From Psammoneis japonica (Eukaryota): a DNA stretch of 47,478 nucleotides. The stretch covers positions 310,001-357,478 of the forward strand of contig QPGO01000089.1 of NCBI GenBank assembly GCA_008632985.1, in the 5' to 3' direction. Under the pieces are notes generated by a model. It made no database searches, was not told the DNA's origin, and saw nothing but the letters and a program-made list of their open reading frames with translations. The stretch's first letter is position 1; every line of letters begins with the position of its first letter. Shown here piece after piece: positions 5,067-47,478 of this stretch. A program made the position numbers and the translations under genes.

Positions 5067-5562
5067 TCCCTGAGCCAATTCAATGACTGAGATGGCCATG
5101 TGTTTGTCATGCATGCAGAGACAGCCTGAACCACAGCATCACGTAGAAGCAGACAATTCTTTTTAAACACAACAAAGCAGAAGGCACAGTCGACACGCAT
5201 TGCAGCACCCCCGCTCTGAAGCACACGACAGAAGGGAGAAAGAAATCAACTGTCATGAGTGCCGAGCTTGTTTCTGGCAATGAAACGTTTGTAATCACCC
5301 CCCCCCCCCCCCCATTTTTTACCACAATGCATTTCCAGCCGACTGAATGCCATGCCAACAGGGCCCTGCTGAGCTCCTGATGACTTTTGGGGTCACAAGC
5401 AGAGGTTGGCGTTAGTCACAGCTATCACTAAAAATCGTCCCTCGTACTTTCACGTGTGATAAAGGTGCTCCGCGAAAAGTTAGTTTCATTTTCAAATACC
5501 CGGCACCATGAACAATACATGCCTGTTCTACCGGCATTCTCGAACAAAAAGAAAATAGCTCC

Positions 5563-6101: not shown

Positions 6102-6140
6102 AGCTGCTATTTCTAATCTAGTTTAACTTTTAAAACGAAT

Positions 6141-25652: not shown

Positions 25653-26670
25653 ATGTGATCTTGCACATTGGCTTGCAAGTTGACTTGCCCAAAACAATTG
25701 TGTTGCCTGCCACATGCTGCTTTCACCACCTGGCTCACATCGTTGATTTTTGCTTCTCATGCATCTCCGCTGCTCCCTGTGTTTGCAACATGAACAACAA
25801 CACCTCAGTTCACTGCAGGAAATGATTGCCCCATGCTTGGCAAACATTTCCTTCCAGCTGGTCTTCAACATCACCTCAGAACTTGTTTGCCTTGCAACCT
25901 TGCAAACTCTCCTTTTTTTCAACACATTTGTGGTGTTTCTGGCAACAAATCAACAGACTCTCATTGCACAGAGCTGCCAATGGGAGAATCTGAAGAACCC
26001 AGTGAAGCCATTGCCTCTTCTGCCTTTNACGCCCCCCCCCCCCCCCCCCCTCCTGCTGAAATGGCTGCAACAGGAGTTGGTTTGTCTCATTCCAGCACCA
26101 CCGCGCCCACTCCACAGGCTCATTTGTGACACAGCCCCCAGGCCATTGAGACCCAACATTGCTGTTGTGCAGGCACAAGAGTCATGCCCTTCTCATGACA
26201 CTGCCATTTGGCCAGGTGCCAATGATGTCTCAGAACACCAGCACCCAGACAACAGAGAAGAATTTGTTTCTGCTTCATTTGATGGTGGTGTGTCTTCTTT
26301 TGTTGCCAAGGGGCTTGCTGCTGTTGTTGATTTGGGCTCTTTTGCCACACTGGATTGAGTTGAGTCCTTTTCTCCTGACAAAGATCTCATTGTCCTTGAA
26401 GTTTGTAACAGCAAAACCATCTCCATGGCTGGCATGTTGGAAAACTGTGTTGCTCCAAGGGTGCCCCAATTGAGTGTGCAGCTGAGGAACTTCTCAGAAA
26501 TGTGCAAGAGGAGTGCTTGTGTGGTGGGTTGTCCACCAACTGACAAATCTCCTGTTCTCGCACTTTCATTTCAAAGCTTCTTGGGTCCATGTTGCTCAGC
26601 ATTGTCGCTGCATGGCAGGTGGCAAGATTGTTTTGGATGAGTCAACTTGCAAGTCAATGTGCAAGAACAT
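25653..26670. mobile_element. ~1-kb degenerate TIR element
   Basis: tcttgcacattggcttgcaagttgacttgcccaaaacaat...cctgcca (25659-25712) is inverted at 26613-26666 (tggcagg...attgttttggatgagtcaacttgcaagtcaatgtgcaaga). Confidence 0.6.
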
Positions 26671-27099
26671 GCCATGAATTGATGCACAAGATTTGTTGTC
26701 TCCACACTGGTCTGACAGGCTTGCATCAAGCAATTGACAATTTAAGACAAATCCAGCTGGTCACAACAACAGACATTTTGTCATGCTGGCGTGCATCTTG
26801 GATTTGTGCACAACCAAATGTGCACGTCAGCACCATGCTCATCATGCAGCTTGTCCCCCCCAATGCTGTTGTGGGGTGCATTGGCCTGGGCTGTCAACTG
26901 GCAATGAAGAGCATGATTGTCATCATGTTCCATCACGACAATGATCTTTTGTGATGCAATGGATGGTGCAAGTGAAGAGTGAAAGCAGCGCACCTGCTCA
27001 CATTCACAAACACTGATGGTTCATTGAGAGAATTGGCTGATGTCTTTGGCGCATGCCAGCACACAACAATTCCTCCCTTTGCACTGAAGCATCAGTGAG

Positions 27100-27420
27100 A
27101 GGCCCCCCCATTTCACTGGGGGTGTGAGTTCCAGGCATGAAAGACTTTCCAAGACCTCCTGGGTTGGCTTGTGTGAATCAAAGACTGGCGCAACACCTTG
27201 CAGAGACAAAAGAGTCCCAATCTTTGAGTTGGGAAAGGCAACAGAGTGAGCGCCATTCTTGTCAAACTGTTGGGAAGTGCTGTGAATTGTGAGGAGCGTG
27301 TGTGTCCTCAATGGGCCCACGCTCTTCTGACACGCGGCTGGCACTGGAGAACATGACAAAATTGGGCCCCAAAGCACAAGCACAAGCACATGAGTCCAAG
27401 TCATTTGTCACTGCCTGCAA
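27100..27420 (-). mobile_element. Fragment of a second Ty1/copia element (protease-integrase linker region)
   Basis: QQFDKNGAHSVAFP...LSLQGVAPVFDSHKPTQEVLESLSCLELTPPVKW parallels MPLEAMG...TPAEQELREFPKIQMTSQQPWDP of the main copia at ~40340-40460. Confidence 0.55.
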
Positions 27421-27634
27421 AAGCAGCAGACACATCTTTCAGGAACAACCTCTGTGTCAACTGCATTCCTGTTCCAGCTCCAGCAGGTGATTGCAAGTGG
27501 TGGCAATGAGATGTGTGAATGCAACAAGGCAGGGCCCTGCTGGTGTGACCCTCATCATTGTCAACGTGAAAAATCAGAGTCATTGTCACAAGTCAAGGGC
27601 TGGCATGTGAGCTCTGGCAAGTGGAAAAATGGTT

Positions 27635-27860
27635 CCAGATTGTCCCTGTCTTCAGAACTTCTTGATTCTAGATTGTCCCAATCCAGAACTGTGCAGCTCT
27701 AGATTGTTCTGATCTGGAGCTGTTCTGATCTGGAGCTGCTCAGCTCCAGCTGGAGTGCCCCAATCTTGAGCTGTGCAATTCTGATTTGTGCCCCAATCAG
27801 CTGGAGCCACACAACTCTAGATTGTCCCATCTGCAGCTGCATTTGGCCAATCTGGAACTG
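27635..27860. repeat. Degenerate short-period repeat (agattgtccc / tctggagctg motifs)
   Basis: Repeated ctagattgtcc, gttctgatctggagctg and gtgccccaatc motifs. Confidence 0.55.
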
Positions 27861-27889
27861 TGGTCTGCCTCACAGAAGGAAGTCATTTG

Positions 27890-28300
27890 CTTGATTTAGC
27901 CAGAAATGACTGTTTCACATCATGTTGGGAAAATTGTCCAGTGGTGCAGCAGATGTCCATCAGTGTGTCAGGGCCCACAGCATGTTTGTGCGACTGTGCG
28001 TGTTGGCCTTGTGCACCACCCACTTGCTGGAAGATGGAAGGACAAGCAAGGTTGGTTTTGTTGGTGGTTTTAGTGGCCCATTGAGTGAATCTAGATGCCA
28101 GATGGGCTCAGCCACCCACAGTCTTAGTGCAATGACGTGAGTGCAACCAACGAGATGCTTCTGGGCCTGTTGCAACTGCTGAAGTTGCAAAAAGTGAGAG
28201 TGTTTCATGGCATTGAGTTGTTCCCCTCTGATGCCACATCACAGCTGCACCAGCTCAACTTTTAGAGCACAGAAGACAATCCCTGATGCTCCAGATTTCT
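27890..28300 (-). repeat. Putative 3' LTR of the copia element
   Basis: Lies just downstream of RNase H, preceded on the minus strand by a purine run (ttcaagggggaccaag). Segments recur at 41421-41750 (gagcacagaagacaatccctgatgctccagatttc; gttggccttgtgcac). Confidence 0.45.
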
Positions 28301-30531
28301 CTTGGTCCCCCTTGAAATGTTCCCAGCAGACTTGACAGGGACAATTTGATCTGGTGCTGACCCAGTGACTCCCAAACAACAACCACAATCTCTGAGCATG
28401 GTGCAAACCCTCGCTGAGGAAGAAAATTGCTTGCTCCATGCATCGAACTCAACACGTGAACTTGTCTGTCAGAAAATTCTGTCTGACAGACGACGTGACC
28501 ATTTGTGAACAGATCACTCAGGTTTGTCTCCGTTCCTTCCTTTGCAATCCCAACAGCCCCTGCAGCAACAGCTTTGCAGTTGAGGTGATGCACAATGGAG
28601 TGATGCTTCTTCTTGAGTGCAGACTCAGGAAGAGAGCAGTTGTTGTTGCAGATGGCCTTGTTGTCAAAAAGAAAATCGTCGGCCCTTTGATCAGCACACC
28701 AAACATTTGGAGTTTGTGTCACAGACCCTCTGCAATCTCAGCGGCATTCTTGAGTGCAACAATCTCAGCTCTGAATGTGCTGGCCTTCACAGCATCCTGA
28801 CGTTTTGAGCACCACATGACAGGTGCCCAATTGACAAACATCAGGACACCTGCATGGCTGCAATGATTGGCAACATTGCCAGCATGGCTGCCATCCACAA
28901 AACAATGTGTTGACACTGCACCACCTCAAGCAGGCAGTGCATTGGTTGGGATGGCTTCCATTGCATCTTGGCAGAAGTCACACCAGCCACATTTTGTGAA
29001 TCACGACTCAAATGTCATTGGATGTGAAACAGGTCAAATGCAACTTGGCACTTTGGAACCCATTTAAGATGTGCAAAGACATGCAGCACCTGTTCCAGAT
29101 GACCAATGCAAGGCAGCACAAGGTGGGCAGACATCAACGAAACTTCCAAATGTGTGTCCACTCTGCTGAGTTTTGTGGCCCAAACCAACACACCCATCAA
29201 TGCTTGGCAGCAGTTCAGTCCTTTGGCATCCAACTCACCAGTCATGTCCAACATGGGTTTGTGCCCACTGCCCAGCAGGGTTGTTGCCTCACCAGCAGGC
29301 AAATGTTTCCCTTCCTCCTTGCCAAGTCCATCCTCAATGTTCTGAACAGTGGCTTTGCAGTGCTTTTCTGCAGAAGTTGCCCAACAGGTGGTCCCGTTGG
29401 TCAGAGTCATCTTTGACAGTGTGGTGCTGAGGCAAGAATCTGGCGCAGCTGCCCTGTCATCTTTGAGCTTGAACTTGGACCTGATGCCATCCATTGTGTC
29501 TTCATGGGTTCATGACTGATCAACAGCACATTGTCAACACAAACCAGAATGTGTTTGCAGCACTCAAATCCACCGGGTTTCACTGCAGGTCTCATCCATG
29601 CATCCGGATCGGCCTTGCTTGGTTTGCACCCTGGATCACACAGCTTTTCTGCCAGAAATGCTCTGAGTGCTGCTTCAGAACTCTTCAATCTGCAAAGAGC
29701 CCCAACCACAATCATGATGCAGCTTTCATCCTTGCCAAATTTGGAACCTGCATGGGTCCAAATCTTCTTCCTGCAAGGGGCAGCAAGGTGAGCATTCTGG
29801 ATGTCACACACAAAAACTTGCAAGCCGTTGAGTGTGGCAAGCATGAGTGCAATTCTTGCCAAATCCCAAGAGATGACAGAAGAGGAGGTGATGTGTGCAG
29901 GGGGTGCAGCAGTGTGGCTTCCTGCTGCCATGCGAGCTTTGCGGCGGAAGTTTTCTCCCATCTTGATGTCAAAAATCACATGGCACTTCACTTCCTGGAA
30001 CCCAGGTGCCATGTCATCAAGCTCCCCTTGTGCTTTTCAAACACAACCTGTGCATTCTTCATCTGCATGCAAGTGGGCATCCCACCAGAGGGTGTTGCTG
30101 TTTGCATGATCAATCTGAATTGCCTCCTTGACGCTCTTTGGAAACCAAGTGCCAAGCTCATGTGTCCAAAGCCAGCACTTTGACTTGACCTTTGCAATGG
30201 AATGCTTGTGGGTTCTCATGACATGAGGGACCCACCAAGCAAATGCTGCCTCTTTTGAGATCCTGCATCAAATGGCAAACTTGGCAACTTGCACAGGAAA
30301 ACTCTCTTTGGCACCCTTCAAGTCGATCCAAGTTGTGCTTCGATCCTTCTGTTGGAGCAAAAATTCCCATCCTTTGGCAGACTTGCGCCTCTTCTGAATG
30401 CCCTGCTCAGTCTCAAAGAACACAGATTCAGGAATGTCCCCATTTGTGCAGCAATCTGCTGTCTCGTCAAATGGGACATGCTGACTCCTGTCCTTGTCAA
30501 TCTGTGCAAATGTGCTCATGATGGCAGCGGA

Positions 30532-30927
30532 GACGCGTTCCAGACGCAGGTGGGAATCCGTGTGACATTGGGCCCGTAGACTTCTACGTGCGAGCTCCGT
30601 ATTAAAATTATACGGTAATTAAAATGTCAATGATCGCCAACAGAAAATGAGGCAATTTTGCGAACGCACAAACTCGCACATGATTGAAGTACATCATTTT
30701 TTACTTAGCCAGTTACATTCTTCAGACATTGAAGAATTTAACTGGCGCATTGTTGTTTCTATAAATTTGTTATATAAAACGTCTGGGGCTTCGCAAAACA
30801 GCGAGTCTGGACAATTTTTTTTAAATGTCACACGTAGAAATCTACGTACGAAACATACGACGGATGATAAAAATTATTGTTGTCACACGTCAGCACTACG
30901 AGCTCCCACCTAGGGCTGGAACGCGTC
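30532..30927. mobile_element. ~396-bp MITE, GAC...GTC termini, 4-bp TSD CGGA (young, unmutated copy inserted in copia pol)
   Basis: gacgcgttccagacgcaggtggga ... tcccacctagggctggaacgcgtc. CGGA at 30528-30531 and 30928-30931. TA- and CG-rich interior. Confidence 0.92.
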
Positions 30928-31683
30928 CGGAGTTGGCAGAGAGCGCTGTGTGGTGCCTGGTGCCCATCAGGGTGCTCTGCCTCACACATCCTTGTGTCAA
31001 GCCTGTCAGAATGCTGCTGGCATCTCTCAACCTCTTCATGACACAAGCAAACTTGGGGCCATCATCATCTCTTGTGAGAGCCACTTCCATGTTCAGACAC
31101 CCCCAGTCAGCTGCCTCCAGCGAGGCTTCCTTGTCCTTCTTCTCATTGTCGTCATTGGCTGCCTCCTCTGAGGACATGACATGATCACACTCATCAAGGA
31201 ATTCATTGTTGCACCCAAGGCAGTCTTTCCAGTCCTCAGGGCTGATCTTGCGGTCCTCGTTGTGTCAGGGAAATCTTGTTCCCTTGACTGGCACTTGATC
31301 TCCTCATCACAGCTGTCGAACTTTGCCTTGTTCTCTTGTGCAGTGGCTTCTAGATTGGTGACCCATTGAACGGAGGTCCTCAAAATGACACTTCCTGTCT
31401 GTGTTGAAATGCAGTGCGACACATGAGACTCCCTGTTCTGTGAGGTGCGCCAAGCCACCTGCCAAGCTTCTTGTCGCCAAGACCCGTGTTCTCCCTGTGC
31501 CAGACCCAATCACAAAATCCAAAGTCATGGTGCTCTGAGATGCCCACAGTCTCCCCAAGGATGTTCTCCAGCCTTGGTCCAGCATCTGAATGATGTGCTC
31601 TTGGGAACGTGCAAGACATGGTTTCACAGGCCCGTGCAAATCAGCAGTCCCACAGTCGCCGTGGTGCTTGCTTCTTGACCATG

Positions 31684-34600
31684 GACGGGTTCCAGTCCCA
31701 GGAACACTGACGAAAATGTCGCCAACACGGAAAACTGAGACATTTTGCACTGTCTTGCGACAATCAAGAAACAATGCATTCTCTCCAGCTCGGCAGATCC
31801 ACATGCTTGACTCCGCAGAAAAATCATTTGTCGCCAGTTTGATGAGACATTTCCAAAAATGTCGCCAAAATTGCCAGTGGCACTCAAGCAACTGGTTCAC
31901 ACAACATGTCATGCTTTTAACACATGTGTGAGTTTTAGCGAAGGAAGACACATGGAGACAACGTGAGACAAAGTGAGACAATTTGAGACAAAGTGAGACA
32001 ACTTGAGACAAAGTGAGACAAATTGAGACAACTTGAGACAAAGTGAGACAAAGTGAGACAAATTGAGACAAAGTGAGACAACGTGAGACAAAGTGAGACA
32101 TTGTTGGCGATTGGCGATCAATGCAATGGCCAATGGTCGTGCCACACTCCTCGCTGTGAGCACTGAGCTGGCAGCCACCTTGCTGCTCTGCTCTCTGGCA
32201 GAGTGGCTGCTGTTTTGCTCCAGCTGCTATCTGCCACTGGAGCAGAAAGTGGCTAGAGTGGCAGTGGCAGTTGGCACAGCAGCGGGCAGGCAGTGGGACT
32301 GGCACTGCACCGCACCGACCGGGCGGCAGTCGCAGTCGTACTGCCGCTTGTTCATCGTTGCTCAAATGACATGAAAAACATCTGCACACAAATTAATGAT
32401 TGTCTTGCTTTGTCTCAATTTGTCTCACTTTGTCTCAATTTGTCTCACTTTGTCTCAAGTTGTCTCACTTTGTCTCACTTTGTCTCAATTTGTCTCACTT
32501 TGTCTCGCGTTGTCTCCATGTGTCTTCCTTTGCTAAAACATCACACATGCACCAATTTGCATTGCATTGCATTTTTTCATTGTCGGAAATGTCTCATTGA
32601 ACTGGCGACAAATGATTGTTCCAGCATGTGTGCAGATCTACCGAGCTGAAGAGAATGCATTGTTTCTTGATTGTCGCAAGACAATAAAAAATGTCTCAGT
32701 TTTCCGTTTTGGCGACATTTTCGTCAGTGTTCCAGGTGGGAGTTTTTGTGACATTTGCCCCACAGAATTCTGCGTGCGAGCTCTGTAGTTCGCACTCTGA
32801 TTGATGCATGTGTTCATCTTCGACATAAAACAAACGGCCAAGTTTGTAGCACATGTGTCTCTGTTTGCACCAGTGTTTCCCGAATGTGCATTTTGGGTCG
32901 GACCAAATTGGCATTTTGGTCGAACCAAAATGCTTTTGTCGACCAAATTGCCGGACCGACCAAATCAATTTGGACGACCAAATTGACATTTGCGAAATCT
33001 CGACCAAATTGATTTCAGGCACATTTCTGCACAAACAACACCAACGCAGCTTCTACGAAATTTTTGCACAGCATGCCAACATGCGCGTTTTCCAACAGAA
33101 TCTTCCCGTGAAAGCACGCCAAATTCCCCCGACCAAAATGACATTTTCGGGGAAACAAAATCATTTTGGTTGCAAGCATCAAATTTGTCAACAAATTCGG
33201 TTTGACCAAAATGCCCAACAGGAATCATTCGAAAATGTCGCGTGTGGGTCATCTCGCACACGTGTGCGCGGTTGTTAAACTGTGCAGGCATGCGCATGTG
33301 TGCGAGGTGTGAGTGGAACATGCGCAGAATTGCTGCTGAGTGAGTTGACATGCAGTGGATTTTCCGCCGGTGCACAACCTGCGTGGTCTGCACAAAAGAT
33401 GAGTTTGTGCTGGTCTCTGAAGCTTTCGCATGTCACAAAATTGTGTTGTGCTTTTAACAGACACATGCAGCAATTCAAAAATCTTGCAGAACACCCCGAA
33501 AGAACTCTGGAATCTGCACAAAAAAATTTCCATTTAACGGTGCGAACAGAGTTGTCGCGAAGCGCTTCTCAAAACAACTTCAGATTGAACACAGTGAAAC
33601 ATCGACTGTTGGCAAAACAGAGTCACCATCGGACAAATAGATCCCGTGTTCTTCGCGCGCAAACAACGCGACAACGCACAACAACGCCATGGCGAGAAAC
33701 GCAAATGCCACCCCCCCATCTACAAGCTGGGAATGCGAGATGCTGTTGAAGTGGTTGGACAATGTGCATGCGCTGCATTCATGGGTCAAGTTGGGTTTCT
33801 TCTCACTGCTTGTTGTTGTGTCATTTTACAACGTTTTGACCCACACCGTGTTCTTTGCTTTGTTGCTTTCTGCTCGCGCGCCACCAACAGCTCTTCCTGC
33901 AGGGTGTGGCCAGTTGCACGGCTGCATTGAACCCAAACGTGCGTGACCAACTGGCCCCACCCTGGCTGACTCATGACTGACATTTTGCACAAGGAAAAAC
34001 ACAAAATCGTGTGGAAATGTGCACAATGTCATGCGAGAGAGTGATTGGAGCTAACAACTTTTCGGGAACTGAGCTGAAATGCCATCTGGTTGACGGCATT
34101 GGCCTTCACCATGTGAATCAAAATGCCGTCAATCAGATGGCATTTCAATTGATTTCCCGAGAAGTTGACATTCGCACTCAGATGGATGGACAGACTGACA
34201 TTAATTGTTTTCAGCACTCTCCTGCAAGCAAAAAAAGGTCTGTCCTCTGCCTTTTGGCATCTGTGTAAAAGTCGATTTTGTTTCCAAAATCGATGGTTTT
34301 TTCACCATGTGACGCTTCCCACGTCTTCTGACATTGTCAATTGACATGCCCCCCCATGCCTGCATTTGCCAGGTTCACGGTTCTGAACACCATTGCTGCT
34401 GGTGCAAGAAGGGCCTTTTTTTGCTCCAAGAGGACAGACCGGTCATCAGCAGAGTTCTGCGTGGCAATGTGCCGAGAAATTTACACAGATTTTTTTTGCA
34501 TCCGACGTCAAACGCTTTGCCATTGTCTCTCACAACGGCAGCATGGTGAGTCCACAATGCACACTCTTGTCGAACAACATGGGCCCACAAGCTCTCATTC

Positions 34601-35184
34601 ATTGTTGTTTTGCCTTGTTGCTCGCATTGTGCATGCAGGTGTTTGTCACCAGTTGCACTGACATGGTGCAGCCACTTGTTGTCATCGGTGGAGAAACCAA
34701 CGAAAGGCTGTGGCGACAGCAATGTCATGCTGGACTCCAGCAAATTCATGAGCTGGATGTCCTGCCGGTGTGCAAGTTTGGTGATGCAATGATTCTGTCA
34801 AAAAGAAAAAGGCAGGAATGCATGGTGCAGGTGCATTGTTTGACATGCATGGCTCGCCAATTGTGGGGTTGTGGGTGGTGCTGATGCATCTGAAAGCTTT
34901 TCTTCGACACACAATCACATCCTCCAAATTCTCTGGGTGCTGCCATGTGATCTTTGAATGGGTTTCCTTCCCACTTGGACATTTCATCAATTTTCTTCTG
35001 GTGGGAAAAGGCGATGGATTTGCTGGTGTGCTCAATGCCGCCGTCTTCAAATGGCAAGTTCATTTGAGAAGCCTTGCATGCCAGACGTGCCAATGTCTTT
35101 GTCTTGCATGTGTCAGGTTGCACTGCCTTTGGGACATGCTCCCGATCAAATGGGAACTCCCAAAAATGCAGGCTGGCCTGGACC
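31684..35184. mobile_element. Right-truncated copy of the long GAC-terminus DNA transposon
   Basis: Left terminus gacgggttccagtcccagg(...)tgggag after CATG. No right terminus before the duplication junction. Confidence 0.75.
31702..32732. mobile_element. Foldback-type element (~1.03 kb) with long TIRs and 10-bp tandem arrays, copy 1
   Basis: gaacactgacgaaaatgtcgccaa...ttggcgacattttcgtcagtgttc. (gagacaaagt)n at ~31955-32100 is mirrored by (actttgtctc)n at ~32400-32520. Inserted into the ccagg of the GAC-element terminus. Confidence 0.9.
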
Positions 35185-35645
35185 CAGTCTTTCCAGTCCT
35201 CGGGGCTGATCTTACGGTCCTCGTTGTCAGGGAAATCTTGTTCCCTTGACTGGTGCTTGATCTCCTCATCACAGCTGTCGAACTTTGCCTTGTTCTCTTG
35301 TGCAGTGGCTTCTAGATTGGTGGCCCATTGAACGGAGGTCCTCAAAATGACACTTCCTGTCTGTGTTGAAATGCAGTGCGACACATGAGACTCCCTGTTC
35401 TGTGAGGTGCGCCAAGCCACCTGCCAAGCTTCTTGTCGCCAAGACCCGTGTTCTCCCTGTGCCAGACCGAATCATAAAATCCAAAGTCATGGTGCTCTGA
35501 GATGCCCACAGTCTCCCCAAGGATGTTCTCCAGCCTTGGCCCAGCATCTGAATGGTGTGCTCTTGGGAACGTGCAAGACATGGTTTCACAGGCCCGTGCA
35601 AATCAGCAGTCCCACAGTCGCCGTGGTGCTTGCTTCTTGACCATG

Positions 35646-38600
35646 GACGGGTTCCAGTCCCAGGAACACTGACGAAAATGTCGCCAACATGGAAAACTGA
35701 GACATTTTGTGTTGTCTTGCGACAATCAAGAAACAATGCATTCTCTCTGGCTCGGCAGATCCACATGCTTGACTCCGTAGAAAAATCATTTGTTGCCAGT
35801 TTGATGAGACATTTCCAAAAATGTTGCCAAAATCGCCAGTGGCACTTCAGCAACTAGTTTGCACAACATGCCATGCTTTTAACACATGTGTGAGTTTTGG
35901 CAAAGGAAGACACATGGAGACAACGTGAGACAAAGTGAGACAACTTGAGACAAAGTGAGACAAAGTGAGACAACTTGAGACAAAGTGAGACAAAGTGAGG
36001 CAAATTGAGACAAAGTGAGACAACGTGAGACAAAGTGAGACAAAGTGAGACATCGTTGGCGATTGGCGATCAATGCAATGGCCAATGGTCGTGCCACACT
36101 CCTCACTGCGAGCACTGAGCTGGCAGCCACCTTGCTGCTCTACTCTCTGGCAGAGTGGCCACTGTTTTGCTCTGGCTGCTCTCTGCTGCCAGAGCAGAAA
36201 GTGGCCAGAGCAGCAGCGGCAGTTGGCACAGCAGTGGGCAGGCAGCAGGACTGGCACTGCACCGCACCGACAGGGCGGCAGTCGCAGTCGTGCTGCTGCT
36301 TGTTCATCGTTGCTCAAACAATGTAAAAAACATCTGCACACAAACCAATGATTGTCTCACTTTGTCTCAATTTGTCTCACTTTGTCTCAAGTTGTCTCAC
36401 TTTGTCTCACGTTGTCTCCATGTGTCTTCCTTCGCTAAAACGTTGCACATGCATCAATTTGCATTGCATTGCATCAACTGGTCACTCGAGTGCCACTGGC
36501 GATTTTGGCGACATTGTCGGAAATGTCTCATTGAACTGGCGACAAACAATTGTTCCAGCATGTGTGCAGATCTGCCAAGCCAAAGAGAATGCATTGTTTC
36601 TTGATTGTCGCAAGACAACAAAAAATGTCTCAGTTTTCCGTTTTGGTGACATTTTCGTCAGTGTTCCAGGTGGGACTTTTTGTGACATTTGCTGCCCCGC
36701 AGAATTCCACGTGCGAGCTCTGTAGTTCGCACTCTGATTGATGGACACATTTGTCTTTGACACAAAACAAACGGCCAAGTTTGCAGCACATGTGTCTCTG
36801 TTTGCACTGGTGTTTCCTGAGTGTGCATTTTGGTCGGACCAAATTGGCATTTTGGTCGAACCAAAATGCTTTTGTCGACCAAATTGCCGGACCGACCAAA
36901 TCAATTTGGTTGACCAAATTGACATTTGCGAAATCTTGACCACATTGATTTCAGGCACATTTCTGCACAAACAACACCAACGCAGCTTCTACGAAATTTG
37001 CGTGGCGTGTCGACATGCATGTTTTCCAATGGAATCTTCCCGCGAAAACACGCCAAATTCCCCCAACCAAAATGACGTTTTCGGGAAACAAAATCATTTT
37101 GGTTGCAAGCATCAAATTTGTCAACAAATTCGGTTTGACCAAAATGCCCAACAGGAATCATTCGAAAATGTCGCGTGTGGGTCATCTCGCGCACGTGTGC
37201 ACGGTTGTCAGACTGTGCAGGCGTGCGCATGTGTGCGAGGTGTGAGTGGAACATGCGCAGAATTGCTGCTGAGTGAGTTGACATGCGGTGGATTTTCCGC
37301 CGGTGCACAACCTGCATGGTCTGCACAAAACTTTTCTATGCAAGCACCCACTGGCAACCCCTGCGTGTGTTTCTGCGTGTGCTCTCGCACTGATGTCGCC
37401 CTTTTCAGATGGCATTTCGCTGAGTCCCCTGTCAACCTTTTGGCCCCTTCTGCCATTGGTGCACCCTTTTATTTCCATGATGCACAACAATTTTCAGTGG
37501 AAAACGACTGGCGTCGACACTTTGTGGTTCGTGTGCTTGTTGTCTTGTTTGGCAATTTTTTGCGGATTCAGTGCGATTTCTACACAGAATCCAGTGCAAG
37601 TTCTATGCGCTTCAGAAATGTGTGCCGACAGTCATTGCGTCTCCGATGCGATCAACTTCCATCCTTGCCTGAAAGCCCCCAACAATTTCTTTTGCTCCTG
37701 CTGGCCACTCAAGTTCTTCACCTCATGTGGTGAAAGTGCTGTCCCTGTTGTGGCGCCTGCGAGTGTTCGCATGGACAAACCATCGGCATCATCTGACGAC
37801 CGTCCATTTGCTGCGTGGATCGGCTTTTCTGTGCAAGATTCAGTGTCAATTCTACGTGAGAACAATGTTTCTTCCGATGACCTTCTCGTCACATCACCAA
37901 GACTTCCTGTTTCATCCTTGCAAGTCACAAACATCCCCTTTTCCACTTGCTGGCCCACCAAGATCACTGTTCCGAGCAGTGAACTGCACATTGTTGTTCT
38001 GGTTCATGCAATTGTGAAATTCAATCAGTCTTTGTTGAAGACAAGATTCTCCCTCAGAGGCAAAGATTTTCTCTCAGAGCATGCGCTGACTTTGAATTCT
38101 CTGCTTGGCTTGATTGTCCTTTGCTGTGGTGGTTTGGGTGCCTTGCATCCTCTCTGAAAGAAAGCAATGATCTCATTCTGGTGCAATTTTTCCTTGACCT
38201 TTTATCACTGGTGCGCGTCGCTGCAAAGCGGCGCGTTGACCGACTGATCGCACGACATTCTGCCGCACTCTCCTCGCAGGGTGCACTGGAAGTGTGGGTT
38301 GGCCGGCGCCGGTGTTGCTGGGCAAAGGTGTGACAGCACTTAAAATTGGGTTTTGGTTTTTTTTTCTGCGTGGTCTGCACAAAAGATAAATTTGTGTTGG
38401 TCTCTGAAGCTCTCACATGTCACAAAATTGTGTTGTGCTTTTAACAGACACACGCAGCAATTCAAAAATCTTGCAGAACACCCCAAAAGAACTCTGGAAT
38501 CTGCACAAAAAAATTTCCATTTAACGGTGCAAACAGAGTTGTCGCGAAGTGCTTCTCAAAACAACTTCAGATTGAACACAGTGAAACATCGACTGTTGGC

Positions 38601-39532
38601 AAAACAGAGTCACCATCGGACAAATGGATCCCGTGTTCTTCACGCGCAAACAACGCGACAACGCACAACAACGCCATGGCCAGAAACGCAAACGCCGTCC
38701 CCTCATCTACAAGCTGGGAATGCAAGATGCTGTTGAAGTGGTTGGACAATGTGCATGCGCTGCATTCATGGGTCAAGTTGGGTTTCTTCTCGCTGCTTGT
38801 TGTTGTGTCATTTTACAGCGTTTTGACCCGCGCCGTGTTCTTTGCTTTGTTGCTTCTGCTCACGCGCCACCAACAGCTCTTCCTGCAGGGTGTGGCCAGC
38901 TGCACGGCTGCATCGAACCCAAACGTGCGTGACCAACTGGCCCCACCCCGGCTGACTCACAATTGACATTTTGCACAAGGAAAAACACAAAATCGTGTGG
39001 AAATGTGCGCAATGTCATACGAGAGAGTGATTGGAGCTAACAACTTTTCGGGAACTGAATTGAAATGCCATCTGGTTGACGGCATTGGCCTTCACCATGT
39101 GAATCAAAATGCCGTCAATCAGATGGCATTTCAATTGATTTCCTGAGAAGTTGACATTCGCACACGGACAGATGGACAGACTGACATCAATTGTTTTTAG
39201 CACTCTCCTGCACAATTTCTGCGTGATGACTCTCAGGACCCGAATGATTCCCATTGAATTTGGTCCGACCAAAATGCACATTCGGGAAACACTGCTCAAA
39301 GTTTTTGACAATGCGCCTGCCCTGCGCCATTCTTAAGACACTCGAGAATGGCGCAGAAGAAAAAAATGTCAAAAGTTGTTGAATGGATCGCCTGACAATT
39401 GCACCACAAAATGATGCAAAATTTCTCCAAAATCACGTAGAAATGTACGTGCGCGACATACGACGCGATTCAAAAAACCATCGATGTCACAGTTCAGCAG
39501 TGGAGGTCCCACCTGGAGACCTGGAACGCGCC
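35646..39532. mobile_element. Long (~2.9 kb without the foldback) GAC-terminus DNA transposon with 4-bp TSD CATG, inserted in copia integrase
   Basis: Left end gacgggttccagtcccagg|tgggactttttgtgaca, right end tgtcaca...ggtcccacctggagacctggaacgcgcc. CATG at 35642-35645 and 39533-39536. Removing it rejoins integrase KWFCIM-VKKQAPRRLWD. Confidence 0.88.
35664..36666. mobile_element. Foldback-type element, copy 2
   Basis: Same TIRs and 10-bp arrays (35917-36052 and 36352-36420) as 31702..32732. Confidence 0.9.
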
Positions 39533-41420
39533 CATGATGCAAAACCACTTGCATTGAACCTCACGCACAACTCCCTCTACAGGATTCTGGTTGTGCTTGT
39601 CAGGTTCAATGACATGGCAATCAATGCCCTCCTTGCACACCATCTTCATGAACTCCATGCCTGGCTTTGTTTGCTCCTTGGATCCATCTGTCAGGAGTTT
39701 CTCAGGCATGCCAAATTCTTGGCAAAATGCCTTGAGAGCTTTGCCAGCCTTGCTCTTCTTGTCCATGGGAAGATTGCAGCAAAATGGTGTTTGTTCACAA
39801 AGATCTGGGCACATCAATTGCCTTCCAATGAAATCACCTTGCCATTGGCTGTGTTGGTTGCCTGCTCACCTTGCAACCTTGGTTTTGTGAACATCCAATC
39901 CACTCAATGATGCCAACCCAGCATGGGCATCAGTGCTGATCTCACAAGCCTTTGCGTGGTCTTCTTGAGTGTGCTCGCTGCTTGCTTGAGTCCAGTGCAC
40001 CATCGTTTGCTTGAGTCAGCAGCTGTTGCATCACTGTGTCTCTCTTTAGACATGAACATCTTCTGGAGCACTGAGTCTTTAGTTCCATCACCAATCATTT
40101 CTGCAGCAGAGATCTGCACTTCCTTTGACTCTACATTGACCACCACTGTGAGCCCAGATTGGACTTGATCGGCTCCATGGACGAATCTCCCATTGCAACA
40201 GTGCCTGGACTGAGGGTTGCTGTGGACAGGATTGGCTTTGAACTCATGTGTCAGATTGGTGTGAACCATTGCAATTGATTGAACTGGCTCCATTTCCTCC
40301 TCTGCAGATTGTCAAGTGCCAATGGACTTGAGCTCAATGTTCTGTGGATCCCAAGGTTGTTGGGAGGTCATCTGGATCTTGGGGAATTCGCGCAACTCCT
40401 GCTCTGCAGGAGTGCAAGTTGCTGCAACGATGTTGGTCCCCATGGCCTCAAGTGGCATCATGAATGATTTGTCCTCCACAAGGACACACAATGACGAGTC
40501 AGAGCAGGGATTGTCCTGAACCTTGATGCCAAAGTGCTGCAATTGGTTTTGGTTGACCAATGGGTGCTCCATGGAATCAGGCACCCACAATCCCTCATGG
40601 AAGACCAGAACAAACATTGCTCCCGATGTTGGTGATGTCCACGCCATGGCCACTGAAACTGTTGTGGGACACTGTTGATGGAATGGCACCCCTTGTTGAA
40701 AGGTGACACATTGCACTCTTATCCAGAACAACCCAAGAGGGCAAAGTTTTGACCAAAAACAGTGGTGTCAGCCTGCGAATCCATTTCAAGGCATCCATGC
40801 TGTGCCTTGTTCATGTCGCGGATGTGAGTCGTGATTCATGTGTCACACACCATGCTGTTGAGATGTGCAGTGTCAAGGTGACAACTTCACAGATGCATTT
40901 GCTGCAGCTGTGTGGATTGTGCTTGTCTGATTGATGTGGCTGTCCCCCACCCAAATGTGGCAACCAACCACAACACAAAGTTCATGATGCTGCAGAGCAG
41001 GGTCCAGCTCAGCAGTCAATTCTTCTTTGCTCTGCACCTTTTGCTGTGACCACTGAATGCATCCCCGGCATTGTTTCCATCTTGACCATCATCCCTTGAA
41101 TCATCATTGCCAGAGTCGGTGCTGGCGCTGGTGTTCAAGCAGAGATTTTACGGTTTGCTTCTTCAAGCTGTGACGACAGCTTCCAACTCTTCTTTTTGAG
41201 CACCTTGACAGATGCACAAAGGCATTTGGGATTTCCAGGTTGTTTGGAAACACCCAGATGCACACGCTTGTTGACAACCTTCTGTTTGTCCTCCTCACTC
41301 AACTGGCACCAATCCTTGTGGCACCCAGTGTCAATGGACCCGTCTTCATTGCAGATGGTTGTGCCACCAACTCTTCCTCCTCCAGAGGCAACTGCGGCAA
41401 TGGCGCGGTGATGTGATGCG

Positions 41421-41750
41421 TGCAACTGCCAAAGTCACAACAAGTGATCATGTTTTGTGGCAGTGAGTCATTTTCCTCCAATGCCATGTCACAGTTCCAC
41501 CACTTCAACATTTGGAGCACAGAAGACAATCCCTGATGCTCCAGATTTCACTTGCCATCAGCATCAAGCCCATCAAAAACTTTGGTTGTGCCAGAAATGG
41601 AAGCGGCTTGAGCAAAAACCCGCTTCAGTCAGTGCATTGTTTGCAACCATGTTGGCCTTGTGCACACCACCCATTGCAGCATTGCTGGAAGACAGAAGGA
41701 CAAGCAATGTCAGTTTTGTTGTCAGCCCTTTTAAAAACAAAACTTGACAA
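41421..41750 (-). repeat. LTR-like segments homologous to 27890-28300, in permuted order
   Basis: 41421-41550 matches 28171-28300, and ~41585-41740 matches ~27891-28075. Confidence 0.5.
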
Positions 41751-43419
41751 CAGCTGCACTGGTTGTCAGATCTGCAGACAAGAATGAAGCCCAGATTCTG
41801 ATGAATCATGCAATGAATCTCCCAAAAATGGAGCCCAAGAAGTGTTCAAAGAGGAGCTTGTGTGATGCAGAACAGCAACACAATGCTCAGCTCTAAAAGG
41901 CATTGGCTGCCAAGGCTCCAAGAATGTGTTGCCATTCCTTGCAATCTTGACTGCAATGAGGATGAGTTTGGCTTTGATGTCTTCTCTCACTCTGTCAAGT
42001 GCACTGGGTGCATGCAGCCACTGACACACATCCCAACAAGGTTGCTGATGATGCCAAGGAGGCTCTGCGGTTCAAGAGACAAAGTGCTTGACAACATTTT
42101 GCCTTGTCCAAGTGATTCATTCAACAAGTGCACCTCCAACGGATGCAGTTCTGGCTGCGGAGAGTGGGGTTAGAGTCAGGTGAACACCTTGAGGCAGTCA
42201 CCAAGTTTGATGAAGAATGCATGGATGACAGAGTTTGCAAATGCAGCTCCCAATGCATCCAGGCCACTGAAGATCAAGAAGCCACAGCTGCAAAGATTTC
42301 CAAGGAAATGAAGCTGAAAGCAAAGCTGACACTGCAGAGGAGGAAGAACTGGCCTGTGAACACATTGATGAATGTCAAGATTGCAACAAGAGCTCATCAT
42401 GTGGTGCCACAATGAAGCCGGGGACATGGGTGATTTCATGAAATGTGCAGAAAATCACTGCGGACAATCAAGCATGGCCCAGTGCAGCATTGAAGCCCTC
42501 TCTGATTTTCAACATTGCTCCAACTGTGATGGAGGCAAAGTGTCCCTCCAGGAACTCATTGGAGTGCAGTTCAATGTGACCAACTCTCTCTCACAACAAA
42601 GATGAGTGTGTTTCCTGTCTTGACAACAAAGAAGGGGTGCGTTTGTCTTCTTTGACTGCCTTCTGTTTGCTTTGCATTTCGTTTGATCACTTTCTGTTTG
42701 TGAAGCAGCAAAGCTCACCTTTGCCCCTTCCATTTTGTGCACAGCAATTCTGCATGGCTGTGATGAACAGCAAGATGAACAGAGCACAAAGCGTCAACAA
42801 AATGTTGTCTTTGACCCCAGTGAATGTTGATGCAATGGGTGTCAAGTGTGTGATCATCTGCAAACCACGTTCCACCTCATAAATTTCAATTTTGCCTCAA
42901 TGACTTGAATCTCTCTCATTCTTGTGTTTGCATTGCACAGACCGCCAACCAAAAGGCTCATGAAAAGCAAGTCTGTCAATGACATGATGACCTTAAAGCA
43001 AGGAGCTTAAAACAAAAATGACGAGTTTGTTGTCGGCTGCAATGCCCATTTCACATTTCTGGTTGGAACAACAAACAAGCTGACATTGATGAGTTCTCCT
43101 TTGTCAAGGAACAGGCGTCAAAAGTGTCTGACAACCACGTTGCTTCCCTTGTCATCTTCAGAACTGGCTGCTTGCTTGGGGGCATTGTGGGTCACGGCAT
43201 GTGTCCTTTGCGCTCAGCTCGCCAACTGGATCATGCCTTGAAGGTGGCCTCGCACAGAGGAAAGCATGCTGACCCGACCAATGTCACAAGGCAGACCTCT
43301 GGCATTGTCCTCGGAAGGTCTGGCAGCAGCAACAAAACAGTGGCTCCAGCAAAAAAAGCCCCTGTCATCCAATGTTGGCATTTCGGGGTTTGAACTGTCC
43401 AAGGACAAGAAAAGATGCA

Positions 43420-44572
43420 AAGGTTGTGTGGGAGGCACTGTGTCCATGACACCGACCCGCGCGCACTCTCAGGCATCTTGGCCAAATCAATGGAGCTGGG
43501 ATCTCTCACTCTTGTCTCTTGCTTGAGAGCCTCTGGAGAATGGTGTTGCAAACAGTGATGACTTGGACGGCCCTGCTTCTTCTGTGCAAAGCGCTGACCA
43601 AGACATGCTGTGCTTGTGTGCGGAGCTTGTTGCTGTCAAGACGGCTCGCGAAAGTGTCACGAAGCAACTTGATCAAGTTGACCTCAGGAAATCTTTGCTG
43701 ATCTTGTCATGTTTTTTGAGGCTGGCAACAACTCTGACAACGCATTGTCCACTCTGTCTTCTCTGGATGTCCTCAGGGCCGCTCATCTTGTTAAGTTGGG
43801 GAACGAGGCACTGACTGACGTGCGACCAGAAGATCTGCAGGCTGGTCACTTGGATGCCACAGCTCACAGCATTCACCACAAAAATGCAGAACAGGTCATT
43901 GAAGCTGCCAAGTGGGATGACGAATCAAGCAAAACGAGTCTCCATGCAGCCAGCCTTTTGCAAAGATTTCCCTTTTGTCCTTCCCAACCCTTGGTGCTCC
44001 GAAAACAGGATGCGCTCTTGAACCACTCTCTCAGTTTCAGAGCTGTCAGGAGACTCTGGACTCTGAGATGGGTTTGCATTGGATCTGGGTTTCTCAAGGG
44101 TTCAAAAAGGATGAAGAGTTCTGTGGAACTGTCTCTGTGGATCCCGCGATACCAAGCGCATTGGTTGGAGCATGTGTCTGCAGGGGCAGGGCTTGGGACA
44201 AAAGGAGGCATGGAAACAACAATGGCTCTGTGACATCAAGGAGGAGACAGATCAGGAGGCAGCCATCAAGTGGGGCAGCACTGTGACTGCATCAGGGCAT
44301 CCTGTTCATTGTTGTCATGCTGCAGGAAAATGTGGCTTTCACAGCCTTTCTTTTTCTGAGACTGCGCCGCTTCAGGGCTGGCTGTGCACATCTCCCTGGG
44401 TTGGTGCCGGGCTGTCGATCATTGCCAGGGCAAATGAATCATTGTGCTGTTGTGGTTGTGGTGAGGAACTGGAGAGCCAGCCAAAAGAGAAGAGGAGCGC
44501 ATCGAAGTCTGGAGAGAAGTGGTTGTCTGAGACTGCGCCTTGGTTGCCACCACGCTGGAGAGCGAAACTGTG
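43420..44572 (+). pseudogene. Hypermutated partial duplicate of the RING/MIB-HERC2 gene (homologous to ~10290-11428)
   Basis: Colinear alignment (aatcaatggagctgggatctctcactcttgtctctt; gcggagcttgttgctgtcaagacggctcgcgaaagtgtcacgaagc). Differences are dominated by TA->TG/CA and CG->TG/CA. Confidence 0.92.
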
Positions 44573-45092
44573 CATCCAGACATTGTTCTGGAGAACAAGC
44601 TCAGCAACCTTGTGCTCTCTCCACTGGCTTGACTAGAGGGCCTCTACTCCAGCCAGGCTCTCTCTAGCTAGCTAGAGTAGCTGCTGCCAGCAGCAGAGAG
44701 TAGAGCCAGCTGTAAACAATGGAGTTTGTGTGAGCGCGCAATGCATCATCACGCGCGCATGCGATTCAAATTTCAGAAATTTGAATGAATCGCATGTTTT
44801 ATGACGCGTGAATATGATTCAAATGTATTCCTCATATTAATTGCTATATATGGCTTACTTTTTGTCACTTAAAATGAAGCATTCAGTCATTTAGAACCTC
44901 AAAAATAACCGTTGCTGGTTTCCGAGCGCGCACGCACGTTGGTCTCTCGTAGAAGTTATGTGTGACTTTCCAACCGGAGACAGCGTGCACTTACCCAGCA
45001 AAATCCCGCGGCCGCACAACCGCAAACGACACAACACCGTGTGCTCATTGTTCATAAAGTATCCAAGCAAGTGAAGAACTCTTCTTACCACC

Positions 45093-47478
45093 ATGGTCAA
45101 ACGAGGACTTATCTCTTCCTCTTCACGTGAGGACCTCGACAAGCTCGCAAAGGACTTGTTACTCGTGGAAAACCGGTATGATCCAGTTCACACTGGCCTC
45201 GACGCAAAGCAGTTGAGGCGGGCTTTCAAATTACCGGTACGCAAGCGCACGGAACTCCCAGCATCGGTCGCTACGCCTCTGATCTTGAGGCACGCTTTTG
45301 TTTACACGGACGAGAATGGCGATGAGCGTATGGTTACAAAGAAAGCAACAAAAAGTGGTGTTAAAACGGAGAAGGTGTTCGTCGAGGACGGGGATTACGA
45401 AGACTTGATGAATGCCGTTATGAATGACCCCGCGGAATGGGTGCCTCGCGACGATCAAGGCAATGTCGCGGGATTAGAAAACAATTACGAAAGAGAGTTC
45501 GGCTCATATATTGAAACTCACGTTGCCAACATCCAAGCTCAAGTTGCAGAAAAGTGGTTGAACGGTGAGCGCAAGAAGGAAGTGAAAAGACTGGTCGGCA
45601 TCATCAAGGACAGGGAGAAGGAAGTAAGTATACGCGCATATGAATTTGTTTAAATGGCATGACACTGTATGTTTCTATGCTTTTCTAACTTGTTGTTTTC
45701 TTTCCTTGCAACTTGTTCCTCATCTCTATCGTCGTACCGCGGCATCTACTACACAGCGGACCGTACCGGCACGGGTGCAAGAGACTCGTTCGAGTACCGA
45801 CGATGAACAGTTGCCGGTGAGTACATATTGTTATATTGTACTTTAGCATGCACGCCGTGTGATACTTTGTGGCGTTCTATCCACTTGTGTGCTGACTTAT
45901 TCATTTTGTATTCCGTTTCTAAATTGAACTCTCCGCAGATTGTATCATCTTCCGAGTCGACGGCGGTACCACGCACTGGTCGCACTGGTGCTCCTTCCGT
46001 AGCTACGGGCGCCGTTCCAACTGAAGTTGTTGCGTCCGTTCTGGCTGGTGCTGCTGGCCAAGGAACGGGGGTCAACATCACCATTAATCAATATCAAGGC
46101 GAAAACACCATTAATCAATATCAAGGCGAAAACATGCATGTCGGCGACAACATCAGCAGCGACGCCGCTCCAACCAGCACTGACGGTCGCAACGCCGCTC
46201 CATCCAGTACTGACGGTAGCAGCGCCGCTCCATCCAGTACTTCTGACGGTAGCAACGCCGCTCCAACCAGCACCGACGGTGGTGACCGCACTCCTAGTTG
46301 GGTGGAACGAATCTTGGAGGGACAGGAACTCCAAGGCAAACGAATCGTGGCGGAACAGGGTCGCCAAGGCGAACGAATCTTGGCGGAACAGGGTCGAGTC
46401 TTGGCAGAACAGGGACGCCGAGGCGAACGAATCTTGGCGGAACAGGAACGCCAAGGCGTGCAGCTAAGCGAGGTGCACAAACAGGCGACTACCAAGAAGC
46501 CGCCTGCTAGTGCCAGTCGCTACAACCATCATACCCCCGAAGATACTTCGCGGTACCAAAATGATGTATCCTCTCCACAGTAAGTTTCCGAGATTGTTTC
46601 TTTTTGTCACTTTGCGATTACAGTCATTAATTGTTGTGACTTGCTTGTTTCTCATGTGTTGTTGGCAGGCGCAAGGAGGAGCCCTCGGTGCCCCATCAAA
46701 GCAGCGTCCGCGAAGAACCGGCCCCTCGGACGAAGCTGGAATACGACGAGATTACGTTGGTCTTTCAGGAGAAGGAGATGGAAACCCCTATCGCGCTTCA
46801 TCCCGATGACACATTTCAAGGCGTTTTTCACCGGTACAATAAAGGGCGAATTGATGTTAAGGTGGACAAGTTCATCTTCAAGTATGACGGACACGAAATC
46901 GAACCAACCGAAACACCAAGAAGCTTAGACATGGAAGATGGATTCGTCATTGATGTGGAATTGAAGAAAGGCGTCTGCAAAGACGCGCCCATTGAGCTTC
47001 TCGACTCCTCCAGCGACGAGAATGAAGATGCCCCACCAATGGAGGACAAGGCCCTCCCCACTTTTTGTTGCTTGCGTGAGAACTGCAAGCATCCGTTTCT
47101 GGGGCACGAACCTCACGAGTGCCACGAAGAGGGTTGCACCCTGCAAATCCACCACCTTTGTGCCAGTGAGAAAAACCTAACTAGCAAAGATCATGACCTG
47201 GAAGTGTATTGCTGCATGGAGCACAAGCTCTCCGCGGAGCGCAAGAAGGAAGAGCGCAAGGAGCAACAACGCGAGAAGCAAGAGCTCTCTTGCGAAAACA
47301 AACCAAAGGCAGACAGTCCTGCTGATTTTGTCTCTGGAGCAACGGCGGTGTCTGGAAATGATAGACGCCTTGTCGTTACAGCGCCGCCTAAGTTTGACGT
47401 AGATTCGAAGCCCACTTCGAGTTCGAAGGGTAGAACGCTCGTCGATATGGTATGTGGTTTTCTTTTCATATTTTCTCT
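45093..47478 (+). CDS. Paralog of the SUMO-like-domain/zinc-finger gene (runs off the window; intron-1 acceptor altered)
   Basis: Exons 45093-45623, ~45730-45816, 45939-46579 and 46669-47449. Exon 4 reads FIFKYDGHEIEPTETPRSLDMEDGFVIDV (SUMO-like), then FCCLRENC...IHHLC. The acceptor ctctag (13876-13881) is ctctat here (45724-45729). Confidence 0.7.

Follow-up and report, generated by a model that had tools for sequence, protein, structure and literature searches.

The window analysed here is the whole 47,478-nucleotide stretch of contig QPGO01000089.1 (positions 310,001 to 357,478), in which all coordinates are counted from the first letter, and the whole analysis concerns this one window. 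It contains two copies of a part of a MIB/HERC2-domain gene (gene A), which self-BLAST of the window delimited at 10281-11427 and 43424-44572, both on the forward strand, with 82.0% identity over 1168 columns. Copy 1 (the 10.3-11.4 kb copy) is of the source type and lies within gene A, whose open reading frames (ORFs) occupy positions 9000-10667 and 10807-12474. Copy 2 (the 43.4-44.6 kb copy) is a truncated and hypermutated duplicate of gene A with broken reading frames, in which 2 TA and 32 CG dinucleotides remain. The two copies together are called pair 1. The segment 11428..12870 (forward strand), comprising the 3' part of gene A and the DNA downstream of it, is present in copy 1 and absent from copy 2, and colinear homology restarts at 12871 and 44574, respectively. 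Copy 2 constitutes the right end of a TA-poor and TG/CA-rich domain of 26.2 kb (18453..44633), and it is followed by a gene with a Rad60-SLD domain (gene B, 45093..47478, forward strand) of normal TA and CG content, the paralogue of which is found at 13254-15684.

Global alignment of pair 1 with MAFFT revealed that the loss of TA and CG was restricted almost entirely to copy 2. Among the 36 aligned TA dinucleotides of copy 1, 19 read TG and 13 read CA in copy 2, and a single one was kept. Similarly, 26 of the 77 aligned CG dinucleotides had become TG and 20 CA, while 25 were kept. In the opposite direction there were one TG-to-TA change and four TG/CA-to-CG changes, and the asymmetry was therefore 32 versus 1 for TA (binomial p = 7.9e-9) and 46 versus 4 for CG (binomial p = 4.5e-10). 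The rest of the alignment held 80 further substitutions and 40 gap columns. Compared with the remaining 889 columns (K = 0.096), the rate of loss was 23-75 times higher at TA and 12-23 times higher at CG. The composition of copy 1 is that of the surrounding genes (TpA observed/expected 0.48-0.60, CpG about 1), and that of copy 2 is that of the enclosing domain. An earlier note on this DNA had quoted pairs of short words differing between the copies, had stated that few changes run the other way and had claimed that the source copy retains its TA and CG. When both stretches were read, the word pairs were found as written, and the counts and the background-level composition of copy 1 agree with the other two statements.

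The direction of change, for which the same note had named the 43.4-kb copy as the mutated one, was studied with an outgroup. The sole homologue of gene A that was found is P0001, a protein of 807 amino acids with 41-48% identity over the aligned parts. From 292 codons compared with it, 38 were informative, and copy 1 agreed with the outgroup at 31 of them and copy 2 at 7. All 12 codon changes of the TA or CG type (TAC/TAT to TGC/TGT/CAT, GTA to GCA/ACA, and arginine CGN to TGN/CAC) had copy 1 equal to the outgroup, and none of the seven informative codons favouring copy 2 belonged to these types. A gain of TA by copy 1 was not seen in this comparison, and these results indicate that copy 1 is the ancestral copy and copy 2 the mutated one. 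Additional support for the loss of TA came from a remnant of a Copia-type (RVT_2) reverse transcriptase (29410..30036, reverse strand), identified by homologue search and Pfam, which contains no tyrosine. It has 3367 homologues in the representative library (best E = 4.8e-56), and comparison with the 150 best of them showed that all eight consensus-tyrosine columns are replaced in the remnant, by cysteine (4), histidine (2), phenylalanine (1) and serine (1), with CVDN standing opposite the consensus YVDD. A Pfam scan of seven Copia reverse transcriptase homologues gave matches to RVT_2 for all seven, five of them above the curated cut-off and the tyrosine-free P0134 below it, while among the 105 ORFs of at least 100 amino acids in the domain Pfam gave only a weak RVT_2 match (E = 0.0065) and two matches at chance level. 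As a separate observation on gene A, the alignment with P0001 shifts frame twice inside copy 1 (at 10511-10598 and 10828-10834, from frame 3 to 2 to 1) with no obvious intron, and these shifts may represent short introns, real frameshifts or assembly indels.

The gene B paralogues (pair 2) provided the control. Self-BLAST aligned 13423-15631 with 45277-47474 at 80.3% identity, and the changes between them were symmetric for both dinucleotides (TA 17 versus 11, p = 0.34; CG 13 versus 18, p = 0.47), as opposed to the one-sided counts of pair 1 (Fisher test between pairs, p = 1.3e-13 for TA and 8.6e-15 for CG). The dN/dS values of the paralogues were 1.06, 1.09 and 0.71, and 89 and 78 TA were retained. 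Since these near-neutral paralogues have kept their TA, selection does not explain the contrast with pair 1. Weak colinear homology continues from 44574 and 12871 up to the gene B ATG (45093 and 13254) and into the gene, which argues that both pairs come from a single segmental duplication of at least 5.3 kb. The idea that duplication alone does not trigger the mutation is borne out by this control, because an equally similar 2.2-kb duplicate was spared. The description of the adjacent duplicated gene as unmutated in both copies is right for TA and CG content; otherwise the pair has diverged by about 20% and is mosaic. The middle of the gene (14015-14731 versus 45807-46583) shows 88% protein identity and a dS of 0.06, and the first exon (13236-13814 versus 45075-45653) shows 42% protein identity, a dS of 0.43 and a dN/dS of about 1, a mosaic which suggests that gene conversion has acted on the repeat-rich middle, across the 32 kb that separate the copies, and that the ends evolve fast.

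The enclosing domain, in which every TA was listed, has per-kb observed/expected ratios of 0.0-0.2 for TpA and 1.5-1.9 for TpG/CpA, and its CpG ratio ranges from 0.15 to 0.9. Leaving aside an island formed by a miniature inverted-repeat transposable element (MITE), it holds 132 TA in 25.8 kb, versus 774 in 18.5 kb of flanks. Its right edge (44617..44800) is intergenic, located 290-480 bp upstream of the gene B ATG, and falls inside the duplicated segment and not at the end of an element. Its left edge coincides with the left end of an element (18438..20376) whose terminal inverted repeats measure 126 bp and are 90.5% identical. Duplicated transposon segments are also found within the domain (31221..39212), where 31221-33397 matches 35185-37330 at 90% and 33379-34226 matches 38366-39212 at 95%; at 31,900-32,540 and 35,950-36,430 these segments contain arrays of 55-85-bp units in direct and inverted orientation (self-BLAST identity 83-97%). 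DNA free of TA cannot hold TAA or TAG stop codons, and many long, spurious and nearly tyrosine-free ORFs are the consequence. The stop-to-stop ORFs of the domain were long on both strands, many of the 48 of at least 150 amino acids lay inside it, and ten that were translated carried 0-3 tyrosines each. Outside the domain, a second TA-poor block (block 1, 2763..5143) covers two ankyrin-repeat ORFs (2556-3986 and 3987-4769) and an old MITE copy, which lies at the 3' end of the ankyrin-repeat frame. This frame (2556-4769, forward strand) consists of 477 and 261 codons split by one in-frame TGA, with 4 tyrosines, 30 cysteines and 31 histidines, and it looks like a gene-sized unit hypermutated on its own.

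Contigs of sequencing run X1 match 41520-43326 (depth 36) and 44314-45089 (depth 34.6) with no differences, and the latter bridges the right edge of the domain. Depth for these contigs ranged from 33 to 36, as opposed to thousands, and up to 47,000, for repeats in the same run, where single-copy depth is about 35; the window may itself have been assembled from X1, and the match is thus a check of the assembly and not an independent sample. The absence of differences in contigs of single-copy depth indicates that the TA-poor pattern is not an assembly artefact and that single-copy DNA is affected as well. The pattern is independent of copy number.

Two members of the MITE family differ in their mutational state. 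The young one lies in the middle of the domain (30532..30927) and is unmutated, having 396 bp, perfect 12-bp inverted ends GACGCGTTCCAG, an intact 4-bp CGGA target duplication, 27 TA and 26 CG. The old copy in block 1 (4668..5066) reads TG or CA at 19 sites where the young one reads TA, with no case of the reverse, a count that also speaks for the direction of TA loss, and its CG are nearly unchanged (changes 4 versus 1). The young MITE being untouched and the old copy mutated, the process was at work before the young MITE inserted and has since left this MITE alone, so that it appears to be episodic or old. The summed contig depth of the family in run X1 (33,000-47,000, versus about 35 for single-copy DNA) corresponds to roughly a thousand copies, and the family is probably active or recently active. 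A further relative of the young MITE is found at about 39362-39533. No match was obtained in a metagenome scan with a 37-base pattern of this MITE.

The spectrum of changes was studied both in the duplicates of the domain and at polarised sites. Double differences between in-domain duplicates were mainly adjacent CA/TG differences, 23 in the 2.2-kb pair and 10 in a tandem with a 180-bp period at 19.6 kb. The ankyrin tandem had 12 of them, any other double change occurred only once or twice between these duplicates, and X1 contigs of other family members carry the same CA/TG double differences. Such doubles correspond to an ancestral TA or CG changed on opposite strands in the two copies, and the changes were thus made in place, copy by copy. 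Both strands were affected about equally at polarised sites (29 TG versus 22 CA). According to the 5' neighbour, A-to-G changes affected 34 of 72 sites after T, 14 of 144 after A, 11 of 143 after C and 10 of 172 after G. With respect to the 3' neighbour, 24 of 37 TAC, 11 of 30 TAG, 9 of 26 TAT and 7 of 33 TAA had changed, and at sites with TAY on one strand and TAR on the other the TAY strand was the one mutated in 23 cases versus 9 (p = 0.02). Survival of TA in the domain relative to the flanks was 0.44 for TTAA, 0.33 for CTAA, 0.22 for CTAG, 0.06 for GTAC, 0.02 for ATAC and 0 for ATAT. Both approaches indicate a 3' preference of TAC/TAT over TAG over TAA. The resistance of TTAA, the most resistant context throughout the domain, also explains why the word ttgttaagtt, singled out earlier as a survivor, was retained in copy 2, where its TA at 43,792 lies in TTAA.

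A similar pattern is known from the chlorarachniophyte alga Bigelowiella natans, in which integrated viral and transposon-like DNA undergoes localised TpA-to-TpG/CpA hypermutation (Mettrop et al., bioRxiv 10.64898/2026.01.13.699255). The main text of this preprint reports that 231 of 302 new substitutions in mutation-accumulation lines fell in two integrated viral regions, one of them single-copy, that all but one of the 231 were A/T-to-G/C changes, each of these at TpA, and that hypermutation was seen in 11 of 15 lines. It also describes 124 TpA-poor, CpA+TpG-rich clusters in the genome and an enrichment of reverse transcriptase and transposase domains among TpA-depleted coding sequences, and its discussion considers the TadA/ADAT2-ADAT3 tRNA adenosine deaminases and ADAR (bioRxiv 10.64898/2026.01.13.699255). 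As far as that text goes, the window shares with B. natans the A/T-to-G/C changes at TpA on both strands, the restriction to delimited foreign or mobile DNA, the inclusion of single-copy DNA, an apparently episodic activity and TpA-poor, CpA+TpG-rich clusters in which reverse transcriptase and transposase domains are enriched. The conversion of 32 of 36 aligned TA, accompanied by a weaker A-to-G excess outside TpA, corresponds to the first of these features. The limits of the domain (18,453-44,633) and of block 1 (2,763-5,143) against normal flanks, with the Copia reverse transcriptase, the inverted-repeat element and MITEs inside, correspond to the second, and the depth of 34.6-36 at 41520-43326 and 44314-45089, together with the mutation of a single copy of pair 1, to the third. 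The loss of TA in the window is near saturation (survival 0.04-0.21 relative to the flanks), unlike the giant-virus insert of B. natans, for which the preprint gives a Rho of 0.45. In addition, CpG decay accompanies the TA loss here, and the main text of the preprint does not mention CpG. Terms for 3' context or boundaries were looked for in this main text and not found, and no passage considered here describes a piece of a host gene within hypermutable DNA, such as the gene A fragment found here.

We consider it probable that the transposon-filled domain at 18.45-44.63 kb is silenced and was mutated at the DNA level and in place by two transition processes, each specific to a sequence context. 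In the faster one, A would be replaced by G at TpA, whichever strand carries it, giving TG or CA, with the order TAC/TAT > TAG > TAA. The simplest reading of an A-to-G change at T-A in double-stranded genomic DNA, with a site preference and sharp regional limits, is that an enzyme deaminates adenine and is guided there by a chromatin state. The source of the change could be a nuclear adenine deaminase with a site preference like that of U33-A34 in the TadA/ADAT type; TadA and ADAT enzymes prefer U33-A34, in the context UAC, in the anticodon loop. The slower one would be ordinary decay of CpG to TpG/CpA through deamination of 5-methylcytosine on transposons that are presumably methylated, as is expected for methylated cytosine on silenced transposons. 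The 5.3-kb segmental duplication would have placed a promoter-less copy of gene A, later truncated, and a complete gene B beside the island. The gene A fragment, being within the targeted domain, would then have been mutated along with it, and the end of the domain in the upstream region of gene B would have spared both gene B and the distant source copy. The chromatin state would direct the deamination, and the edges of the domain would be chromatin-based.

Several points weigh against this explanation. The young MITE is untouched inside the domain, for which location alone does not account, and at the left edge the TA-rich flank immediately beside the transposon terminus (18,438) is untouched as well. 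The MITE comparison itself was made without an outgroup, and some TG states are common to two old copies, which may point to a difference between subfamilies. The specificity for TpA is strong but not absolute, a weaker A-to-G excess being present outside TpA: columns of pair 1 that are neither TA nor CG contain 31 A/T-to-G/C versus 16 G/C-to-A/T changes. The 3' preference is based on 51 polarised sites and on a comparison of domain and flanks that assumes a similar ancestral composition. Finally, polarisation relied on a single outgroup protein with 41-48% identity and covers 12 TA/CG codon changes, not all sites. The trigger proposed in the earlier note, adjacency to the transposon domain, thus stands in part. 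The mutated zone does run from the island into the gene A fragment and stops 290-480 bp before the gene B ATG, in agreement with a positional or chromatin domain. The untouched MITE and the location of the left edge at a transposon terminus do not fit it, so position by itself cannot always suffice; timing (episodic activity) or targeting unit by unit is needed as well.

A doubtful alternative, but one that retains real weight, is that targeting follows units and time, with silenced elements or transcription units (guided by small RNAs or marked at insertion, for instance) being hypermutated in bursts and the gene A fragment forming part of such a unit. The left edge at the terminus of the inverted-repeat element, with its intact flank, the untouched MITE within the domain and the coincidence of block 1 with a gene-sized unit and a MITE are all in favour of it, as is the non-constitutive nature of the B. 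natans process, seen in 11 of the 15 lines according to the main text of the preprint. However, the source copy of gene A is unaffected, although a signal guided by homology and acting in trans would be expected to strike it too. In addition, the single-copy spacer between recognisable elements is equally TA-free, and the right edge falls inside the duplicated segment instead of at an element end.

Both losses could also be attributed to one process removing the self-complementary steps TA and CG, either by one enzyme, by a repair bias or by an avoidance inherited from a foreign or viral source. The products are indeed the same (TG/CA), and most of the domain, the fragment included, shows both losses together. 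However, they were decoupled elsewhere. Survival of TA and CG relative to the flanks was 0.15 and 0.80 in block 1, 0.15 and 0.64 at 31-39.5 kb, 0.08 and 0.19 at 23-30.5 kb, and 0.04 and 0.44 in copy 2. Across the sub-regions of the domain CG survival ranged widely (0.19-0.70) and TA survival narrowly (0.08-0.21). The old MITE copy lost TA and kept CG (changes 4 versus 1), and CG loss showed no clear flanking preference. The host-derived fragment, moreover, gained the pattern in place, which does not agree with an inherited avoidance. Taken together, these data suggest that CG decay is separable from TA loss. The treatment of both as one process in the earlier note was not sustained, and we consider a single process unlikely.

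Much less probable is that transposon transcripts were edited by an ADAR-like enzyme and the A-to-G changes fixed by reverse transcription. The order of 5' neighbours (T > A > C > G) does resemble the ADAR preference named in the main text of the B. natans preprint. However, DNA transposons, a MITE, a segmentally duplicated host fragment and single-copy spacer are all affected, the two strands changed about equally (29 versus 22), and neighbouring duplicates diverged at the same sites after their duplication. Ordinary pseudogene decay under a normal mutation bias, with which the truncated state of copy 2 would agree, and classical repeat-induced point mutation (RIP) of the 10.3-kb copy from CA/TG to TA, which likewise yields TA versus TG/CA differences between duplicates, are both highly improbable. 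Decay is contradicted by the much faster loss of TA and CG than of other sites in the same alignment (23-75 and 12-23 times) and by the near-neutral gene B paralogues which keep their TA; RIP of copy 1 is contradicted by the outgroup P0001, which makes this copy ancestral, and by its background-level TA (observed/expected 0.48-0.60). A sequencing or assembly artefact, whether from a chimeric join or from modified bases being miscalled, is hardly credible even if run X1 is the source of the window, given the k-mer contigs of that run which match 41520-43326 and 44314-45089 at depth 33-36 without differences and bridge the edge, and given the 80 other substitutions and 40 gap columns of the fragment, typical of real divergence.

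The preferred explanation, a silenced domain mutated in place by two processes, was also compared with other known systems. RIP of ascomycete fungi changes C:G to T:A, mostly CpA to TpA, is triggered by duplication, mutates both copies and is tied to a RID-type methyltransferase and a premeiotic sexual stage. In Leptosphaeria maculans it reportedly leaks into single-copy genes beside repeats. Like RIP, the process seen in the window is a hypermutation by transitions in specific contexts; in both, mobile DNA is degraded, duplicates come to differ by TA versus TG/CA, and neighbouring non-repeated sequence can be reached. However, RIP makes TpA out of CpA/TpG, and here TpA is destroyed, as indicated by the outgroup and by the TA ratio of 0.0-0.2 in the domain. 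Furthermore, RIP needs duplication and strikes both copies, and here pair 2 was spared altogether, only one member of pair 1 was affected, and so was the single-copy spacer at 41520-43326. The process had been described as unlike RIP in the earlier note, and the conversion of TA to TG/CA in one copy and in single-copy DNA agrees with that description. Fungal RIP was rejected because the direction differs, duplication is not needed and only one copy is mutated. With the decay of CpG driven by 5-methylcytosine the window shares an excess of CG-to-TG/CA changes (46 versus 4), the absence of a marked flanking preference and a strength that is greatest in the oldest-looking parts of the island, but CpG decay of methylated transposons alone cannot explain the loss of TA. 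With TadA/ADAT2-ADAT3 and ADAR it shares the change of A to inosine, read as G, and a strong requirement for T or U on the 5' side, and we take the 3' preference for C to match the anticodon-loop context of TadA. Those enzymes act on RNA, and the link of this DNA pattern to such an enzyme is putative. Editing by ADAR followed by retrotransposition does not account for the DNA elements, the host fragment and the spacer, nor for the 29 TG versus 22 CA outcomes.

With regard to the host, two ORFs of the window had no identical protein in the collection searched. The best homologue of the ureide permease was 52% identical, and among 105 matches the five with an organism name were all diatoms. The organism is probably different from B. 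natans, and its long intron-free ORFs presumably speak against the gene structure of that alga. In the literature searched, Mettrop et al. were alone in describing DNA hypermutated from TpA to TpG/CpA, and their preprint on one alga is so far the only report of A-to-G hypermutation targeted to TpA in DNA. We would class the locus as a further case of TpA hypermutation, probably from a new lineage, in which CpG decay acts alongside it on a transposon island. Should the organism indeed not be B. natans, the process has a wider phylogenetic range than has been known. New features with respect to the previous case are the near-saturated loss of TA, the 3' neighbour preference, the separable CpG decay, the swallowed host gene fragment and the untouched young MITE. 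The locus constitutes a natural experiment in which a polarised pair shows the state before and after, with an unmutated control next to it. It gives a first estimate of the flanking-base preference (TAC/TAT > TAG > TAA), which constrains the enzyme, edges sharp to about 170 bp, a later MITE insertion that dates the activity, and a loss of TA that is faster than, and independent of, CpG decay. We put forward only tentatively the broader idea that a defence by TpA-directed adenine deamination of DNA is not confined to one chlorarachniophyte but may also exist in an alga distantly related to it, with diatoms as its nearest named homologues. There the defence would work together with cytosine methylation in domains of silent chromatin, have a TadA-like preference for T-A-C/T and be able to erase host genes that come to lie in them. 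If true, it would represent a widespread eukaryotic counterpart of RIP with the opposite direction. For annotation, the tyrosine-poor spurious ORFs of TA-free DNA are liable to be miscalled as genes.

Tyrosine-poor Copia reverse transcriptases were also found among public sequences. Seven of the 150 best matches had at most one tyrosine over at least 100 aligned residues, five of them with none in their full length, and a second homologue search with the tyrosine-free P0134 as query gave one of 116 with at most one. The predicted Copia reverse transcriptases P0134, P0169, P0203, P0237, P0248 and P0289 have 0-1 tyrosine and raised cysteine and histidine, and in them ALYGLK reads ALCGLK or ALHGLK and YVDD reads HVDD, CVDD or CIDD. 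P0134 and P0289 derive from Logan assemblies. Because P0134 and the other low-tyrosine match may come from the same organism as the window, they are not evidence of a wider distribution. A metagenome scan with P0134 alone gave 80 pattern matches, none of them confirmed, and the alignment of the tyrosine-free reverse transcriptases offered no conserved stretch usable as a pattern for such a scan.

A search of the window for Rfam families gave no match at the gathering threshold. Outside the TA-poor regions, two other repeats with normal TA were observed. The first is a 560-bp unit with 125-bp inverted ends that are 89% identical (5553-5677 and 5987-6112). The second is a 320-bp direct repeat (12490-12810 and 16349-16682, 76% identity), in which TG/CA-to-TA differences numbered seven one way and none the other.

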